From contig CAZVTT010000004.1 of NCBI GenBank assembly GCA_964629685.1, forward strand, positions 76 through 64,075: 64,000 bases of DNA, in the 5' to 3' direction. Position 1 is the stretch's first letter. Each line of letters starts with the position of its first letter. This stretch comes from an uncultured Gammaproteobacteria bacterium (GTDB taxonomy: Bacteria > Patescibacteriota > Microgenomatia > UBA10105 > UBA927). The notes under the pieces are model-generated. The model ran no database searches. It worked only from the letters and a program-made list of their open reading frames with translations, and was not told the DNA's origin. Positions 33,150 through 39,703 of the stretch are shown here, piece by piece. The position numbers and the translations under genes were made by a program.

Positions 33150-33431
33150 ATGGGAACAGAAGAGGCATGGTTTATAGAACTCTCCCTCTATTGCGTCGTT
33201 TTAGTAATACCCATTCTTTCGCTTCTGGCCGTTGTATACGGATTCAGGGAAATCGCGGTGCGTCACAGATTATTTTATAAACTGGTTGGACTGCTCCTGG
33301 TATTGGTGGGCATTTTGGGTGCAATTGTTACGGTAACACACATACTTCCCGCCGCCGCCGAAGGGCTATCCAATATACAATCAAGTATCAGACCAGCACC
33401 GACACCGAACAACCCGTTCAACGGCGACTAA
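33150..33431 (+). CDS. Small membrane protein (93 aa), unknown
   Basis: Two to three hydrophobic helices; RBS AGGAAAGGAATAGGG; flanked by two long hairpins. Confidence 0.45.
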   Translation: MGTEEAWFIELSLYCVVLVIPILSLLAVVYGFREIAVRHRLFYKLVGLLLVLVGILGAIVTVTHILPAAAEGLSNIQSSIRPAPTPNNPFNGD

Positions 33432-33436
33432 CATTT

Positions 33437-33496
33437 GTCAGACAGTGATAGCACTTCGCTTAACACGCGAGTAATGCGCACCTATCACTGTCTGAC
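33437..33496. repeat. 15-bp perfect inverted repeat GTCAGACAGTGATAG-N30-CTATCACTGTCTGAC followed by T-rich tract (terminator-like / regulatory stem-loop)
   Basis: Seen directly. Loop contains GAGTAATGCGCAC, which resembles the arm of the upstream hairpin. Confidence 0.6.
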
Positions 33497-33526: not shown

Positions 33527-33563
33527 TTGTCCACATTTTTTGAAAGTACTACAATCTGTAGTA
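33527..33563 (+). promoter_or_regulatory. blaI promoter (TTGTCC-17-TACAAT) with overlapping operator TACTACA-ATC-TGTAGTA (33547-33563); leaderless start
   Basis: Perfect 7-bp inverted repeat of the TACA/TGTA BlaI/MecI/CopY type; final A is the A of the ATG. Confidence 0.6.
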
Positions 33564-33934
33564 TGAAGATTAAACCATTGAGCGAACTTGAACAATCTGT
33601 TATGGAAATCGTCTGGAGTTTAGGTACGTGCACTGTCCGTGACGTCGTCGATAAGCTCACTGATTCCAAACCATTGGCATATACAACCATTGCTACCATA
33701 ATGAACCGACTAGTGGAAAAAGGAACCCTTCTGAAAAGTAGCGGGAGTATAAGTGCATATACTCCATGTATGTCCAAAGAAATGACAGGAAGAACGGTAG
33801 CCCAGTCATTTCTGAAAAATTTTTTCCGCTCGTACGGAGACTCTGCCGTCGTATCGTTTGCCGAATCAATAGACCAACTCCCGGCAGAAAAAAAGCAGCA
33901 CTTGTTAAACATACTCAAAGCACATGAAAAGTAA
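33563..33934 (+). CDS. BlaI/MecI-family transcriptional repressor
   Basis: wHTH with TVRDVVDKL...YTTIATIMNRLVEKG; no CxC metal motif (not CopY); start MKIKPL. Confidence 0.8.
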   Translation: MKIKPLSELEQSVMEIVWSLGTCTVRDVVDKLTDSKPLAYTTIATIMNRLVEKGTLLKSSGSISAYTPCMSKEMTGRTVAQSFLKNFFRSYGDSAVVSFAESIDQLPAEKKQHLLNILKAHEK

Positions 33935-34934
33935 TGCCGGCAAATATATTATCTGGTTGCTCCTTGCGTGCGGTGGATTTTCCTTCCTGCTGATATCTGC
34001 GTTACATAAATTCCGACCCTTTTTCTTTAAATCTACGGTTTATTACTGCCAGGAAATTCTCAGAACAATGAGTGTTCAGCTGATTCCGAATTATTGGAGT
34101 CAGGCTCTGGTGTTTATTTCGCTACTATTTATCGGCTATATCGTAGTCAGGATGACAGTATTTTTAGCACAGTTTGTGATTCAAATCATATCTCTGCGAA
34201 AAAGAAGTATACCCGTTCCCCCAAAACTGAAACCGATACTGTCGCAACACCATTTAACAGCATATACGCAGGTATACCGGACGTCCAAACCCCTGGCGTT
34301 TTGTTTCGGTACTACAAACGCAAAAATATATATATCTACCGGATTAATATCGCTGCTTACCGGTAAGGAATTAGAAGCGGTACTGTTACATGAAAAATAT
34401 CATCTGGATCACCATGACACGTTTTTTTCCATCCTTACGACTGTACTCGAACATTGTTTTCCTTTTTTTCCGTTGGTGGGGGATATAGCTCACCGATATT
34501 ACATTGCGCGCGAAGTATTAGCGGATGCGTCGGTACTTTCCCAATGTAAACGAGGTAAACAAAGAATCCTTTCCGTCCTAAGAAAACTACTGGAAGTAGA
34601 ACCGAATCACATGTCAACATTATTTCCGGCCGTTGGTTCTGCAGATACGCTGGAGACCAGAATTGCAGTCTTAATGGACACTACTCCTCCGTCCCGGAGA
34701 TTTTCGCTAAATAGCATACTATTAAGCGGTATATCCGCGTTGGTATTACTGGTATTAAATTTATCTCCGGTACAGGCAATCGAAATGTCTGACAAGGGCT
34801 CAGGTTCGGTTATGATGTGCTTCAGTGCCGGGGAATGTACAACGTGGTGCAAAGAAACATCAGCACATCTTCCTGTTCCGGAAGAGAATACATCCAAACC
34901 ACAGTTTTCGGCTGAACTTTTTTCAAAAAACTAA
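33924..34934 (+). CDS. BlaR1-like M56 zinc metalloprotease signal transducer with short Cys-rich C-terminal tail (no penicillin-binding domain)
   Basis: HEKYH HExxH motif in LLHEKYHLDHHD, 4+ TM segments, tail MMCFSAGECTTWC; start overlaps blaI stop by 11 nt. Confidence 0.75.
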   Translation: MKSNAGKYIIWLLLACGGFSFLLISALHKFRPFFFKSTVYYCQEILRTMSVQLIPNYWSQALVFISLLFIGYIVVRMTVFLAQFVIQIISLRKRSIPVPPKLKPILSQHHLTAYTQVYRTSKPLAFCFGTTNAKIYISTGLISLLTGKELEAVLLHEKYHLDHHDTFFSILTTVLEHCFPFFPLVGDIAHRYYIAREVLADASVLSQCKRGKQRILSVLRKLLEVEPNHMSTLFPAVGSADTLETRIAVLMDTTPPSRRFSLNSILLSGISALVLLVLNLSPVQAIEMSDKGSGSVMMCFSAGECTTWCKETSAHLPVPEENTSKPQFSAELFSKN

Positions 34935-34941
34935 CTCGCAC

Positions 34942-34979
34942 TTGACAGAAGCCGGTCGCGATTACTACAGTATGTAGTA
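34942..34979 (+). promoter_or_regulatory. Promoter TTGACA-18-TACAGT with second BlaI-type operator TACTACA-GTA-TGTAGTA (34963-34979)
   Basis: Same half-sites as blaI operator, overlapping -10, 31 nt upstream of the dsbA-like ATG. Confidence 0.6.
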
Positions 34980-35009
34980 GTATTCGTCATTAATAAAGGA
35001 AATAATTTT

Positions 35010-35756
35010 ATGCCTGAAACACATGGAAAATTTTCATTCGGAAACGGAGTACATCCGCTTCTCGTTTTAGTATTAATCGGCATGTCATTTGCCATCGGTT
35101 CACTTTGGAGCAAGGTACAGTATTTGGAGAAAGGCGGATCGGTCGCAGCAGCGCCTGTTGCCGCTGACCCGAATGCTGCGCCGGCACAACCTCAGGCAGC
35201 ACTAAAAAAACCTGAAGTTACCGCAGCTGATCACTTCCGCGGTAATAAAAACGCCAAGGTAACCTTAGTAGAGTATTCGGATTACGAATGTCCGTTTTGT
35301 AAACAATTTCATCCGACCATGCAGCAAGTCATGAAAGAATACGGCGATCAAGTGAAATGGGTGCTGCGTGATTATCCGCTTTCATTCCATGCCAACGCAC
35401 AAAAAGCTGCTGAAGCGGCAGAATGTGTGGCAAAAAACGGCGGTGAAGATGCATTTTGGAAATTTACCGATCTTTATATAGAAAGAACCACTGCAAATGG
35501 CACTGGATTTCCACTGGATAAACTGGCTGATCTGGGTGCCGAAGCCGGGGCAAACAAGGCGTCCGTACAGAAATGTTTAGATAGCGGAGAAATGACGCAG
35601 AAAGTGAAAGACGAGATGGCGGCCGGAACCAGCGAAGGAGTGCAGGGTACACCCGGAACCATTATCATCGACAGCAAAGGCGGTACGCAATTAATACCGG
35701 GGGCCCTTCCCTTTGAACAAGTGAAACCAATGATCGATGCAGCCTTAAAAGTGTAG
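35010..35756 (+). CDS. DsbA-like thiol:disulfide oxidoreductase, membrane-anchored
   Basis: N-terminal TM, thioredoxin fold with CPFC active site (YECPFCKQF). Confidence 0.75.
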   Translation: MPETHGKFSFGNGVHPLLVLVLIGMSFAIGSLWSKVQYLEKGGSVAAAPVAADPNAAPAQPQAALKKPEVTAADHFRGNKNAKVTLVEYSDYECPFCKQFHPTMQQVMKEYGDQVKWVLRDYPLSFHANAQKAAEAAECVAKNGGEDAFWKFTDLYIERTTANGTGFPLDKLADLGAEAGANKASVQKCLDSGEMTQKVKDEMAAGTSEGVQGTPGTIIIDSKGGTQLIPGALPFEQVKPMIDAALKV

Positions 35757-35758
35757 TC

Positions 35759-36796
35759 ATGAACATTTCCGCAATTTTCCTGACCGGTCTTTTCGCTGGA
35801 GGACTTACATGCCTAGCAGTGCAGGGCGGATTGCTGGCAACGTCTATTGCGCAACAAAAAAACGCAGAACTAACAGAAACCGCAGATAAGACAGGGCACA
35901 TTGTCCCTGTCTTATCTTTTCTGTTTATGCGGCTGGTAGCCTATACATTGCTGGGTATTCTGCTTGGCATGGTAGGTTCATACGTCCAATTATCCGTCAC
36001 GACCAGCATGGTGCTGCAGTTGGCGGTAGCACTATTTATGCTGGGAACAGCATTAAATTTATTGCAGGTTCATCCCATCTTCCGCTATTTTGTCATATCT
36101 CCTCCAAGATTTCTCACAAAACTTGTCCGGAATCAGTCAAAAAGCCAGTCGGTATTTGGCCCGGCGCTTCTGGGATTTTTTACGGTATTTATTCCCTGCG
36201 GAGCTACCCAGGCCATGATGGCGTACGCAATATCGACAGGATCACCATTTTCCGGAGCACTTACGATGTTTACCTTTATACTGGGAACCTCTCCACTATT
36301 TTTTCTTTTAGGTTATGCAGCTAAGCGCCTCGGTCAGACGTTTAGCGGAATATTTAATCAGGTAGCAGCGGCGGCTATAATTCTGGTCGCGCTTTATAAC
36401 TTAAATGGCGCAATTGCTCTTACTGGTACCGCATATACGTTTCAGGGAATACTTTCTGCCGTAACTTGCACCATCAGCTTTTGTGATACAAACACAGTTA
36501 CCTCCCCGCAAACCGCCACCATCGTAAACGAAGCCACAATTATATTTCATAAAAGCGGATATGAACTTGAACCGAAAAATATTGCGGTAAAAGCAGGAAC
36601 AGACGTTAAAATTAAGCTGATAAATGAGGATGGCGACGGCTGCATCCAAGCATTTACCATCCCAAAACTTAACATCCAGCGAATCGTGAGGATAGGCGCC
36701 ACCGATGAAGTAAACATTACCGTTCCCGAAAAAACCGAACAATTGGCGTTTACCTGCAGTATGGGCATGTACCGAGGCTTCATCCCGGTTCTATAG
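35759..36796 (+). CDS. DsbD_2-like polytopic membrane protein fused to C-terminal cupredoxin-like domain
   Basis: 6 TM helices, with Cys in TM1 (GGLTC) and TM4 (FIPCG). C-terminal ~110 aa beta-rich domain ends FTCSMGMYRGFIPVL. Cys occupies the usual His ligand positions of cupredoxin_1. Confidence 0.45.
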   Translation: MNISAIFLTGLFAGGLTCLAVQGGLLATSIAQQKNAELTETADKTGHIVPVLSFLFMRLVAYTLLGILLGMVGSYVQLSVTTSMVLQLAVALFMLGTALNLLQVHPIFRYFVISPPRFLTKLVRNQSKSQSVFGPALLGFFTVFIPCGATQAMMAYAISTGSPFSGALTMFTFILGTSPLFFLLGYAAKRLGQTFSGIFNQVAAAAIILVALYNLNGAIALTGTAYTFQGILSAVTCTISFCDTNTVTSPQTATIVNEATIIFHKSGYELEPKNIAVKAGTDVKIKLINEDGDGCIQAFTIPKLNIQRIVRIGATDEVNITVPEKTEQLAFTCSMGMYRGFIPVL

Positions 36797-37375: not shown

Positions 37376-37852
37376 TTATTGCACCTGAAGAACCGTATAT
37401 TTCACCAATCCGGCTGGTATCCGGACTTCTATAACATCACCACTTCGTTTTCCCAGTAGGGCCCGACCGATAGGGGATATATAGGAAATAGTTCCCTGTG
37501 CCGGATTTGATTCATATCCACCCGCTACGGTATAACGAAATTCCTGTTTGCCGTCTGTCATCACAACAGAGCTTCCTATTTCCACTACGCCTTTATGAAC
37601 CGTCTCGACAATAACTCCGAGCCTGATAAGCCTGTCTACTCTTCTAATTTGTGCATCCAAAAAAGATAACCTGGCGCGGGAGGCTTTATAGTATCCGTTT
37701 TCAGAGAGATCACCCATTTCCCGGGATTTGCGGAGATGTTCTACTGCTTCGGGACGGGATGCCATCAACTCCTGCTTCTCTTGCAGAACTTTAGCATACC
37801 CTTCTTTCGTAAACGGTATCCTGGCTTCTTTGGGGCGTTGTATTTGCTTCAT
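37376..37852 (-). CDS. greA: Transcription elongation factor GreA
   Basis: Coiled-coil N-domain + FKBP-like C-domain, MGDLSENGYY motif. Confidence 0.85.
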   Translation of the reverse strand: MKQIQRPKEARIPFTKEGYAKVLQEKQELMASRPEAVEHLRKSREMGDLSENGYYKASRARLSFLDAQIRRVDRLIRLGVIVETVHKGVVEIGSSVVMTDGKQEFRYTVAGGYESNPAQGTISYISPIGRALLGKRSGDVIEVRIPAGLVKYTVLQVQ

Positions 37853-37921
37853 ATACGAATATCCCTTACGTTTGTCATCCTAACAGGATAAAGCACTGGG
37901 TGCAATGTACCCAAACTTATC

Positions 37922-37930
37922 TGCTATAAT
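37922..37930 (+). promoter_or_regulatory. Extended -10 promoter TGcTATAAT 7 nt before ATG of first acyltransferase paralog (leaderless)
   Basis: TGCTATAAT at 37922-37930, ATG at 37938. Confidence 0.45.
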
Positions 37931-37937
37931 CCGCACT

Positions 37938-38768
37938 ATGAGCTGGAGAACACCGGAAACGGGAATTAAACCCACCCTAAAAAGTCGCGCCGCTGAATTT
38001 ATTTATCATCACCTAAATGATAAATATGAACTGAAAATTTCTGATCGCAGTGCACACAACATGTCGGAAGCAAACAAGATACTTTCCGATAGTGCTCTCG
38101 TTGTTTATATAAATCATATTTTTTCCCGGGATGCCAAAATCATGATTCCATTAGTTTTAACACTACCGAACGTGCGGAGTGTAATGGGACCGGTAGGAAT
38201 GAAGCACTACGATTTTTCCCGGGATCCGGTAAATGCCGTTTTTTTCCGCTCCTTACGAGTATTCGGTATTCATGCAGCTCCTGTTGTACAAAACAGTGAT
38301 GTATACCAATATGGACAGGAACAGAAACAGGGTATGATTATTAATCTGAAACAGTACACTTCCGATTTGTTGAACAGAGCCGGAACACTCTATGGAATAG
38401 CACCTGAAGGCACCAGAAATCCCAGTGGACAGTTACAACGGGCAAATCGGGGAATTGGTTATCTCGAATCGTATGTGCAACCGGACCAGCATCTTCACTA
38501 TTTACCGGTCGGTCTGGTATATCCTGAACATGATACAAATCCGCGGATAATCGTATCAGAACCGTTTACTTTATCGGATATTTTACCTGCGGAGGTTAAC
38601 TTCGCATCCGATCCGAAAGAGCATGCACAACAGATTTCTGATGTATTAATGACTGTGTTAGCCCGTAGTCTTCCTGAACACATGAGAGGTGTATACGGAA
38701 ATCCCGAAACGATATTAGATCCCTTAGGAATCAGGGAAAACCAACTCCACTATCCGTTACACGAATAA
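37938..38768 (+). CDS. PlsC-like lysophospholipid acyltransferase family protein (paralog 1)
   Basis: HX4D (NHIFSRD) and APEGTRNPSG motifs; start moved from 37905 to 37938. Confidence 0.55.
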   Translation: MSWRTPETGIKPTLKSRAAEFIYHHLNDKYELKISDRSAHNMSEANKILSDSALVVYINHIFSRDAKIMIPLVLTLPNVRSVMGPVGMKHYDFSRDPVNAVFFRSLRVFGIHAAPVVQNSDVYQYGQEQKQGMIINLKQYTSDLLNRAGTLYGIAPEGTRNPSGQLQRANRGIGYLESYVQPDQHLHYLPVGLVYPEHDTNPRIIVSEPFTLSDILPAEVNFASDPKEHAQQISDVLMTVLARSLPEHMRGVYGNPETILDPLGIRENQLHYPLHE

Positions 38769-38824: not shown

Positions 38825-39703
38825 ATGACTTGGAATTCACGAGAAAACGAACGCGCCAGACGTACGGTTAAAAGCCGAATAGCGGAGAAAGCCTTCAACG
38901 TCATTAACCGCGCCTATAAATTAGAAATATATCCGGAGCATTCTGCTAACCTTCAGGAAGCTGACCGACGGCTTAGACATAATCCAGTTGTTATTTATAG
39001 CAATCACGTACGAAGCGGAGATTTAAAATTGATGACGCCTATCCTGCTCAGTATGCAAAACGCACAACGGATTGCCGGACCGGCAGGCATGAAACATTGG
39101 GATCTTCACCGCGATGCAATTAACGGTACATTATTGCGTTCACTCAGGTTAGTCGGCATTCGATCAATACCAGTAGTTCAACCGGACGACCCGTATCCCT
39201 ATGAGGATAAGCTTAAAACACACCTTTTACTGAATTTTACCCGCAGAACCGCGTCGTTGTTAAATCAACCGGGTACCCTGTACGGAATAGCGCCTGAAGG
39301 TACCAGAAATCCTGCAGGGATTATTCAACGGGTTTCTCCGGGGATAGGTATGTTCGAATCTTTCATGAAAGCACCCGATATGCAGATAACGTATCAACCT
39401 ATCGGTTTCGTATACCGGGAACAAGATCCCGAAGAACCCAGGATAGTTATCGCACCACCATTTACGCTTTCCGAATTACTCCCCGAATCGAACCTAACGT
39501 TGCTTCACGGATTAAAACGGCAACAGCGGGCACAGATCACCGCAGATCTGCTGATGACAGTACTCGCGGAACAATTACCCGATCATATGCGTGGGGTGTA
39601 TGGGGATCCGGAAGAAATGCTTAAACCTATTGGTATGACTCAGCCTTTGCTTGATGCTGCCATTTTTGAGCTCCCCAGCAGCCAAGAGGTATTCGCTTCG
39701 TAA
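38825..39703 (+). CDS. PlsC-like lysophospholipid acyltransferase family protein (paralog 2)
   Basis: HX4D (NHVRSGD) and APEGTRNPAG; collinear similarity to preceding gene over whole length. Confidence 0.55.
   Translation: MTWNSRENERARRTVKSRIAEKAFNVINRAYKLEIYPEHSANLQEADRRLRHNPVVIYSNHVRSGDLKLMTPILLSMQNAQRIAGPAGMKHWDLHRDAINGTLLRSLRLVGIRSIPVVQPDDPYPYEDKLKTHLLLNFTRRTASLLNQPGTLYGIAPEGTRNPAGIIQRVSPGIGMFESFMKAPDMQITYQPIGFVYREQDPEEPRIVIAPPFTLSELLPESNLTLLHGLKRQQRAQITADLLMTVLAEQLPDHMRGVYGDPEEMLKPIGMTQPLLDAAIFELPSSQEVFAS

Follow-up and report, generated by a model that had tools for sequence, protein, structure and literature searches.

BlaR1-type signalling is the textbook case of antibiotic sensing. 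Most M56 proteases found in genomes carry no antibiotic-binding domain and their signal is not known, and the PetR/PetP system has shown that copper can be one. In the cyanobacterium Synechocystis sp. PCC 6803, PetP degrades PetR only when copper is present (Garcia-Canas et al. 2021; bioRxiv 10.1101/2020.07.31.226407). What such BlaR homologues do in heterotrophs was described as unknown in a 2023 review. On the side of the DNA, the cop box has the sequence TACAnnTGTA, and a TACA/TGTA core is known for BlaI, MecI and CopY (PMC7253601). Here, we describe a BlaI-M56 locus in a stretch of 64,000 nucleotides, called the window throughout (contig CAZVTT010000004.1 of assembly GCA_964629685.1, positions 76 to 64,075 of the forward strand), which is assigned to the Microgenomatia within the Patescibacteriota, that is, to the candidate phyla radiation (CPR). 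The locus encodes a BlaI-family repressor, a BlaR1-type membrane protease, a DsbA-like protein and a fusion of a DsbD_2 membrane protein with a cupredoxin-like domain, and it contains two copies of one palindromic operator. With a probability of roughly 0.7, we read it as a regulon with two promoters that responds to stress from copper (or a thiophilic metal) and to stress on envelope thiols, and which would be run by a BlaI/BlaR1-type proteolytic derepression switch. The features of the locus are as follows.

33527-33555, plus strand: promoter-like site of the regulator operon, with the -35 TTGTCC at 33527-33532, a 17-nt spacer and the -10 TACAAT at 33550-33555 (consensus scan)
33547-33563, no strand: operator O1, TACTACAATCTGTAGTA, overlapping the -10, with its last base as the A of the repressor ATG
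33563-33934, plus strand: gene of the Penicillinase_R (BlaI/MecI/CopY-family) winged-helix repressor, 123 amino acids (PF03965, 89.7 bits)
33924-34934, plus strand: gene of the M56 (BlaR1-type) membrane zinc metalloprotease, 336 amino acids (PF05569, 60 bits)
34047-34049, plus strand: codon of loop Cys42 (YYCQ), the proposed partner of the tail cluster, conserved in orthologues
34818-34850, plus strand: codons of the three clustered tail Cys residues, C299-x5-C305-x3-C309 (CFSAGECTTWC), with a predicted extracytoplasmic location and conserved in orthologues
34942-34971, plus strand: promoter-like site of the effector operon, with the -35 TTGACA at 34942-34947, an 18-nt spacer and the -10 TACAGT at 34966-34971 (consensus scan)
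34963-34979, no strand: operator O2, TACTACAGTATGTAGTA, overlapping the -10 of the effector promoter
35010-35756, plus strand: gene of the membrane-anchored DsbA-like thioredoxin-fold protein with a CPFC motif, 248 amino acids (Thioredoxin_4 92.9 bits, DSBA 57.8 bits)
35759-36796, plus strand: gene of the DsbD_2::cupredoxin protein, 345 amino acids (DsbD_2, PF13386, 109.6 bits; Cupredoxin_1, 36.9 bits)

The four genes between 33563 and 36796 point in the same direction, and the blaI and M56 genes overlap by 11 nt. The ATG at 33563 was preferred to the mechanically assigned TTG at 33527 as the start of the repressor gene on the grounds of Pfam coverage and homologues. Since the next gene downstream of the DsbD_2::cupredoxin gene is a convergent NUDIX gene, the unit ends at position 36796.

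An earlier reading of the window, made from the sequence alone and called the sequence-only reading below, had claimed that the palindrome TACTACA-N3-TGTAGTA occurs twice, and a pattern scan recovered both copies, O1 at 33547-33563 and O2 at 34963-34979. They are the sole matches in the 64-kb window even if up to two mismatches are allowed; 0.13 matches are expected, and two were reached in one of 100 shuffles of the window. Searches for further copies in the window with TACNAC-N5-GTNGTA and CTACA-N3-TGTAG, each with at most one mismatch, returned only extras at chance level (59317 and 46499). The positions relative to the promoters are also as the sequence-only reading had described them. O1 lies over the -10 of TTGTCC-17-TACAAT, which ends 8 nt upstream of the repressor ATG, and over the presumed leaderless start, its last base being the A of the ATG at 33563. 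O2 covers the -10 of TTGACA-18-TACAGT, and the ATG of the dsbA-like gene at 35010 starts 31 nt past the operator end at 34979.

The same arrangement recurs in related loci. About 50 loci from Patescibacteria, with M56 proteins only 30-47% identical to that of the window, carry the core CTACA-N3-TGTAG in the two corresponding places, one ahead of the blaI ATG and the other in the gap from the M56 stop codon to the next gene; hardly any related locus departs from this layout. Exact cores number 92 over 839 kb of non-redundant related loci, whereas first-order Markov simulations gave 0-1; 30 of the 92 precede blaI and 36 precede dsbA. The remaining cores are mostly located before genes for multicopper oxidases (MCO), YtkA, HMA, DUF2933, DsbD_2::cupredoxin, CsoR/RicR-like, cupredoxin/DUF7282 and copper-ATPase proteins. 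Copies of the palindrome lacking any association with genes had been named as an observation that would speak against an operator. In the window the matches are confined to the two promoters, and in the related loci most of the cores precede genes of the kinds named above. Moreover, 46 of the 47 sites downstream of M56 have a TTGACA (at most one mismatch; 42 exact) 17-18 nt upstream of a TACAnT -10, which is the left operator half-site itself. At the blaI sites, the left half-site provides TACAAT or TACACT (37 related loci) and the ATG follows 2-10 nt past the 13-mer core, and therefore the mRNA should be leaderless or nearly so. At both sites in the window and in all relatives the core reads TACA-N3-TGTA; the 2-nt spacer of the CopY/BlaI sequence TACAnnTGTA is not found.

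These data also bear on the explanation that the palindromes are chance repeats or RNA hairpins and that the M56 protein is a housekeeping HtpX-like protease unrelated to the downstream operon. A stem of 7 bp with a 3-nt loop could fold in principle, and the promoter consensus scan as a whole is not enriched in the region, with 8 sites as compared to 9.4 expected from shuffles. However, the sequence is conserved among loci encoding such divergent proteins and stays in a constant register relative to the -35 and the start codons, the sites are about 100-fold or more above the simulations, and the left half-site lies in the -10 and is thus largely untranscribed. Furthermore, the overlap and the order of blaI and M56 match those seen in bla and mec operons, and the sites combine the TACA/TGTA core of BlaI, MecI and CopY with the N3 geometry of PetR. 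An absence of regulation is thus highly improbable. The reading of the palindromes as RNA hairpins or terminators was rejected because the sequence itself rather than the pairing is conserved and because the left arm of the palindrome, as the -10, is promoter DNA. The BlaI motifs obtained by DNA affinity purification sequencing (DAP-seq) in C. thermocellum, GTCTAT repeats 5 nt apart, were considered as well; they have a different sequence and do not validate the TACA-N3-TGTA operator. According to the sequence-only reading, the repressor controls its own operon and the dsbA-like/DsbD_2 operon through the two operators. Phylogenetic footprinting in the related loci is strongly in favour of this wiring, which is very likely to be correct.

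Two further observations concern the operators and the blaI promoter. Distant BlaI-M56 pairs from Firmicutes and others (L057, L058, L062, L066-L068), which have no Cys tail, show the closely related dyad CACTACA-N3-TGTAGTG upstream of blaI and a second time downstream of M56, and copper genes were not detected near these pairs. As these distant pairs share the two-operator layout without copper genes nearby, the layout seems to be older than the copper specialisation. Between an open reading frame (ORF) for a 93-aa membrane protein (33150-33431) and the blaI promoter, there is a perfect 15-bp inverted repeat at 33437-33496 (GTCAGACAGTGATAG / CTATCACTGTCTGAC); the loop measures 30 nt and a U-rich tail follows (folding energy -29.4 kcal/mol, z -4.9). 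The repeat probably serves as an intrinsic terminator by which the regulated blaI promoter is insulated.

The repressor matches PF03965 well above the cutoff of 22.6 bits and over profile positions 1-114 of 115. Its nearest solved relatives are BlaI from M. tuberculosis (2G9W) and MecI. The scores with the NCBIfam models for BlaI and MecI are 44.3 bits against a cutoff of 180 (BlaI_of_BCL) and 24-28 against 250 (others), and the CopY/TcrY model TIGR02698 gave 44.6 bits against 121.95. Because these scores are far under the cutoffs, the protein can be classified as a member of the BlaI/MecI/CopY family at the Pfam level only. The last 45 residues contain no Cys in the window repressor or in any of about 60 orthologues, and the CopY motif CxC-x4-5-CxC is thus missing. 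CopY-type direct copper sensing by the repressor was excluded for this reason. Cys23 (codon 33629-33631) is the single Cys in the DNA-binding domain. Moreover, the sequence GDxAxxS98/F99AES is nearly invariant in the orthologues (S 98%, F 100%), and the N/F cleavage position of MecI aligns with S98/F99 of the repressor.

The adjacent M56 gene encodes a protein that exceeds the PF05569 cutoff of 31 bits and that contains HEKYH at residues 156-160; H156, E157, H160 and E197 are invariant in the M56 orthologues. The top Foldseek matches of an AlphaFold (AF2) model with a predicted local distance difference test score (pLDDT) of 75.8 are cryo-EM structures of BlaR1 (8exp, E 7e-7, probability 1.0). 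By its match to the family model, the HExxH motif with the additional Glu and the gluzincin fold of the AF2 model, the protein is assigned to Peptidase M56. It had been proposed that this protease has no beta-lactam-binding domain. Indeed, only 52 residues follow the last transmembrane (TM) helix, Peptidase_M56 is the sole domain recognised, and there is no Pfam match to a transpeptidase or beta-lactamase domain. With the blaR1_generic model, the protein scored 40 bits where 400 are required, and the match stops at profile position 335 of 585. Sensing of beta-lactams by the M56 protein was ruled out because the sensor domain is lacking.

In place of this domain, the protein ends in a short tail with three clustered Cys residues (CFSAGECTTWC; C299, C305 and C309), as the sequence-only reading had noticed, and this cluster is conserved in the CPR orthologues. 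Hydropathy revealed three strong TM helices at about 5-30, 57-92 and 259-288. The protease domain of BlaR1 is located in the cytoplasm (PMC9834060), and the second TM helix of the window protein aligns with the BlaR1 helix that precedes this domain. Because of this correspondence, the loop at residues 29-56 and the tail should face outward. The topology prediction for the tail that had been recommended, carried out by hydropathy and alignment with BlaR1, thus places its 52 residues on the outside, and the charge pattern of the tail and of the segments on either side of the protease domain fits this topology. Among 51 CPR orthologues, the loop residue Cys42 is conserved in 98%, Cys299 in 96%, Cys305 in 86% and Cys309 in 90%. 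The pattern C-x4-7-C-x3-C is found in the tail of 95 of 128 full-length subfamily representatives; the M56 relatives from Firmicutes have no tail. The odds that the Cys tail, together with loop Cys42, acts as the sensor are about even.

The first effector gene encodes a protein that belongs to the DsbA family by its profile matches and its CPFC motif, which 43 of 55 homologues share with the window protein; one TM segment at residues 8-36 would anchor it in the membrane. The second protein has six TM segments, with Cys18 (GGLTCLAV) in TM1 and Cys146 (FIPCGATQ) in TM4, as in CcdA and DsbD, and by these features it qualifies as a predicted DsbD/CcdA-type thiol-electron transporter. A juxtamembrane CTISFC (conserved CxxxxC) is located ahead of the C-terminal cupredoxin-like domain, which contains GC...FTCSMGM. 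As a single sequence, the C/C/M/M residues of this domain align with the Cys...Cys-x-Met-x-Met of pneumococcal CupA. A profile of 15 domains, which took in three stand-alone CupA-like proteins from related loci, matched CupA (2MRY/4F2E) with E 7e-20 and the metal-binding domain of pneumococcal CopA with E 6e-14 in a search of the PDB, and C41, C79 and M81 are invariant. CupA binds a binuclear Cu(I) cluster via these Cys/Cys/Met residues (review PMC7558416). The domain is thus best described, on the basis of its ligand set, as a putative CupA-type Cu(I) domain. A type-1 blue-copper reading was rejected, as the His ligands are absent and the CupA set C...CxMxM is present.

The orientation of this domain can be predicted from relatives with an HMA fusion. 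These have a single extra TM helix between the HMA domain, which is normally cytoplasmic, and TM1 of DsbD_2. Because of this one additional helix, the six-TM core is predicted to start and end outside and the CupA-like domain to face outward. No literature on a fusion of DsbD_2 with a cupredoxin was found. The protein is thus predicted to represent an undescribed effector, in which a CcdA-like transporter with an outward CupA-type Cu(I) domain couples the export of reductant to copper handling without a periplasm.

Two side observations were made on the effector genes. Inside the DsbD_2 ORF, at 35884-35917 (codons ~42-53, TM1-TM2 loop), there is a terminator-like hairpin with a 13-bp stem and an 8-nt loop, followed by TTTCTGTTT (z -5.6). 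In the related locus L001 both stems are identical, but not the loop; in L004 this part has diverged further. The hairpin could be an internal attenuator or pause element. In the related loci L052 (8656-10170) and L054 (8695-10179), the operator-controlled gene after M56 is not dsbA; it encodes an uncharacterised membrane protein, roughly 500 aa long, in which several Cys pairs occur (GCSVC, CPI, PCCGNSTAFPDCNHG and a terminal GGGCGV) and which has no Pfam match.

The link to copper comes from the related loci and from the CupA-like domain. At least one copper-linked family is encoded within 8 kb in 40 of 46 related loci. Copper-type P1B ATPases are present in 29 of the 46; both ATPase types score above the TIGR01511 copper-ATPase cutoff, and the CopA-type enzymes have CPC and MxCxxC motifs. 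DsbD_2::cupredoxin proteins, often with an N-terminal HMA domain, also occur in 29 of the 46 loci. Pfam and NCBIfam matches place a CsoR/RicR-like gene in L034 and L042 and a DUF7282/cupredoxin gene in L044 under the operator. The metal/thiol theme of the sequence-only reading is thus borne out by the copper-linked genes, the Cu(I) ligand set of CupA and the conserved tail Cys residues, and copper is probably the physiological signal.

The operators of L034 (1558) and L042 (2305) are located before a gene of 90-95 aa for a CsoR/RicR-family protein (PF02583) upstream of a copper ATPase. In these genomes, the membrane-protease circuit appears to stand above a classical cytoplasmic copper sensor.

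The same circuit might respond to the thiol-redox state of the envelope, that is, to folding capacity or disulfide stress. The DsbA-like and DsbD_2 proteins would then act on the sensor Cys residues as a homeostatic feedback, and copper would be one oxidant of several. In agreement with this explanation, dsbA is the first target, directly following M56 in 40 of the 46 related loci, and the regulon in the window consists only of thiol-handling proteins. The four conserved Cys residues predicted to lie outside could make two disulfides, and the literature on the Scs proteins ties copper stress to disulfide stress. However, the gene neighbourhood is copper-specific (Cu-ATPases, MCO, HMA, CupA-like, CsoR-like) rather than typical of general oxidative stress, the DsbD_2 partner has a Cu(I) site of its own and PetP, the precedent, requires copper. 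Envelope thiol-redox state as the signal is thus rather unlikely.

For the copper-responsive switch that we favour, the following sequence of events can be proposed. In the off state, a dimer of the 123-aa repressor would occupy (A)CTACA-N3-TGTAG(T) and cover the -10 at both promoters, so that the blaI-M56 operon and the adjacent dsbA-like/DsbD_2::CupA-like operon would both be shut. The co-translated M56 protease would expose loop Cys42 and the C-x5-C-x3-C tail outside the membrane as a sensor. Binding of Cu(I) to the sensor thiols, or their copper-catalysed oxidation, would activate the cytoplasmic protease domain, and the active M56 protein would cut the repressor near S98/F99, as BlaR1 does with BlaI and PetP with PetR in the presence of copper. 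Derepression would yield the membrane-anchored CPFC protein and the CcdA-like thiol-electron transporter with its external CupA-type Cu(I) site. Similar to Scs proteins, these products may repair or prevent copper-induced mis-oxidation of envelope Cys residues and hold Cu(I) outside. It may be speculated that the induced thiol oxidoreductases could also reset the sensor. Whereas the parts of the system, their conservation, their positions and their associations are observed, we infer the DNA binding and the cleavage of the repressor from what is known of the family, and the identity of the signal and the sensor role of the tail from the context. A wider proposal would take the Cys42 loop and the C-x5-C-x3-C tail as a minimal extracytoplasmic Cu(I)/thiol switch that gates the M56 protease and is reset by the induced DsbA-like and DsbD_2::CupA-like proteins. 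Microgenomates-type CPR bacteria would have this switch as their main copper regulator, and it would also explain in general how sensor-less BlaR-like proteases perceive their signal. Such a proposal is tentative and, on present evidence, doubtful.

Several points weigh against our interpretation. The whole analysis is a comparison of sequences. The window itself has no ATPase, MCO or HMA gene under or near the operators, which is why the copper link in this window depends on the relatives and the CupA-like domain. A few neighbouring genes (CDF) suggest other metals. With 4 K/R and 1 D/E, the charges of the loop at 29-56 are equivocal and not ideal for an outside location. The loop and tail are the very parts in which the AF2 model is unreliable (pLDDT 40-55), and Cys42 is therefore only a presumed neighbour of the tail Cys residues. 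Approximately seven orthologues are devoid of two of the three tail Cys residues, with the operators and dsbA retained. Finally, Cys127 of the M56 protein, which is cytoplasmic in the predicted topology, is conserved in 100% of the 51 CPR orthologues and Cys23 of the repressor in 90%, offering an alternative, cytoplasmic route of sensing.

In this alternative, Cu(I) or another thiophile would bind to Cys23 of the repressor, to Cys127 near the active site of M56, or to both. Thereby, the repressor would be made cleavable or the protease unmasked in the manner of a cysteine switch, and the tail would be a disulfide-stabilised structural stub. The conservation of the two residues and the orthologues that retain the system with an incomplete tail cluster agree with such a route, and binding of copper on the side of the repressor was also weighed by the authors of the PetRP study. 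On the other hand, a single Cys per monomer in a DNA-binding domain makes a poor metal site, and the conservation of the tail motif in 95 of the 128 representatives is hard to square with a functionless stub. Moreover, several loci already have a CsoR-type cytoplasmic copper sensor under the operator, which suggests a division of labour between the compartments. Sensing in the cytoplasm is therefore distinctly improbable. With respect to Cys127 itself (AFCFG; codon 34302-34304), the residue is located beside the active-site region and is replaced by Thr in the Firmicute relatives. Together with the repressor Cys23, Cys127 could act as a cysteine switch or contact a metal in the cytoplasm.

The distribution of the family was assessed at several levels. 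Only about 20 word-sharing relatives of the M56 protein were found, all from metagenome bins of the Microgenomates or Woesebacteria type. A profile search among 1.84 billion cluster representatives returned 539 representatives at E<=1e-30, and BlaR-like M56 proteases of the sensor-less type amount to 13,020 representatives at E<=1e-10, not all of which necessarily lack a sensor. A genome scan yielded 62 loci, mostly from Gottesman-, Woese-, Levy- and Roizmanbacteria, WWE3 and other Patescibacteria and in a few cases from Firmicutes or Chloroflexota. Many TPA_asm records (L010, L013, L019, L027 and others) contain a Patescibacteria-type locus with the operator and have titles such as "uncultured Gammaproteobacteria/Pseudomonadales"; these titles look like taxonomic mislabels. 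Further downstream in the window, beside greA (37376-37852, minus strand), there are tandem paralogous genes at 37905-38768 and 38825-39703 encoding proteins of 287 and 292 aa. The arrangement is syntenic in L001, where the orthologue shows weak similarity to acyltransferases.

Among the known systems, M. tuberculosis BlaI (Rv1846c, 2G9W), which is encoded with Rv1845c, is, of the proteins with a solved structure, the closest to the repressor in sequence. The Rv1845c protease is not known to have a penicillin-binding domain, and the BlaI dyad of this organism consists of TAC...GTA half-sites that are five bases apart. The mycobacterial system differs by its regulon (blaC and others), its beta-lactam inducers and the absence of a Cys tail and of copper or thiol targets. 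The BlaI/BlaR1 and MecI/MecR1 systems of Staphylococcus and Bacillus share with the locus the gene pair, the autoregulation, a winged-helix repressor on TACA/TGTA promoter dyads, an M56 zinc protease domain with the BlaR1 fold and an alignable cleavage-site region. In contrast to these systems, the locus described here has no acylatable sensor domain resembling a penicillin-binding protein (PBP), the spacing is N3 instead of N2, the scores are 40 as against 400 bits (blaR1_generic) and 44 as against 180 (BlaI), and the targets are not beta-lactamase or PBP2a. The CopY/CopR cop-box repressors of Firmicutes belong to the same Pfam family and have the TACA...TGTA core and targets in copper homeostasis. 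However, CopY senses copper directly via the C-terminal CxC...CxC, has no protease and binds TACAnnTGTA, whereas here the C-terminal region is free of Cys, the repressor is paired with a protease and the half-sites are separated by N3. Thus, its sequence features set the system apart from BlaR1, since a sensor domain is lacking, and from CopY, since there is no CxC and the spacer is N3, but it appears to work like BlaR1.

On the side of the effectors, the Scs proteins (ScsB/ScsC/ScsD) of Salmonella, Proteus and Caulobacter comprise a copper-induced pair of a DsbA-like and a DsbD-like protein that protects envelope thiols, and ScsC binds Cu(I) (PMC10907172 and others). The pairing of a DsbA-like protein with a DsbD-like membrane electron transporter is common to both, and the copper control proposed here would follow the same logic. 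No ScsB or ScsC model matched any of the window proteins, and the likeness of the DsbA-like and DsbD_2 proteins to Scs is that of a functional analogue only. The Scs system is proteobacterial and periplasmic, and ScsB is a large DsbD-class protein rather than a DsbD_2/CcdA-type protein with a CupA-like domain. The regulators of Scs, CpxR/CueR, are different as well. CupA and the N-terminal domain of CopA from S. pneumoniae (4F2E/2MRY and 4F2F) share the bis-thiolate and Met-rich binuclear Cu(I) pattern C...CxMxM. CupA is a small, N-terminally anchored protein that acts with CopA on the cytoplasmic face, whereas the domain described here is fused C-terminally to a six-TM DsbD_2 protein after the CxxxxC and is predicted to face outward.

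The closest described system is PetR/PetP. The sequence-only reading had stated that no system with this arrangement is described. This has to be qualified, since PetR/PetP has been described as a BlaI/BlaR pair that depends on copper and lacks a sensor domain, although its targets are other ones and a Cys tail is absent. Both systems consist of a BlaI/CopY-family regulator without the CopY Cys motif and an adjacent M48/M56 BlaR-like protease without a beta-lactam sensor, and the operators, GACA-N3-TGTC for PetR and TACA-N3-TGTA here, share the spacing xACA-N3-TGTx. However, PetRP runs the plastocyanin/cytochrome c6 switch (four genes) and not copper resistance or thiol handling, and PetR additionally activates transcription. 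The proposed ligands of PetP are two Met residues in an outside loop, of which the loop of the window M56 protein has only the non-conserved Met49, and here the conserved residues are loop Cys42 and the C-x5-C-x3-C tail. The two systems are found in Cyanobacteria and Patescibacteria, respectively, and their likeness is one of described features. No literature linking Patescibacteria, BlaR1 and copper was found. Compared to PetRP, the Cys loop and tail as a candidate sensor, the copper-resistance and thiol targets, the DsbD_2::CupA-like effector and the CPR lineage are new and undescribed in the literature searched. While the perception of copper by PetRP is still open, the CPR family provides a second, independent and compact case. 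It combines a candidate ligand module of four Cys residues, a sharp operator of 13-17 bp and a regulon of recognisable copper and thiol proteins, which makes it tractable for reconstitution in a heterologous host. It is also one of few sets of regulator, operator and regulon that can be inferred for the Patescibacteria, an uncultured group with few known regulators. Thus, the copper principle of sensor-less BlaI/M56 pairs, which has so far been shown only for one cyanobacterial switch, appears to extend to uncultured bacteria of the CPR/Microgenomates.

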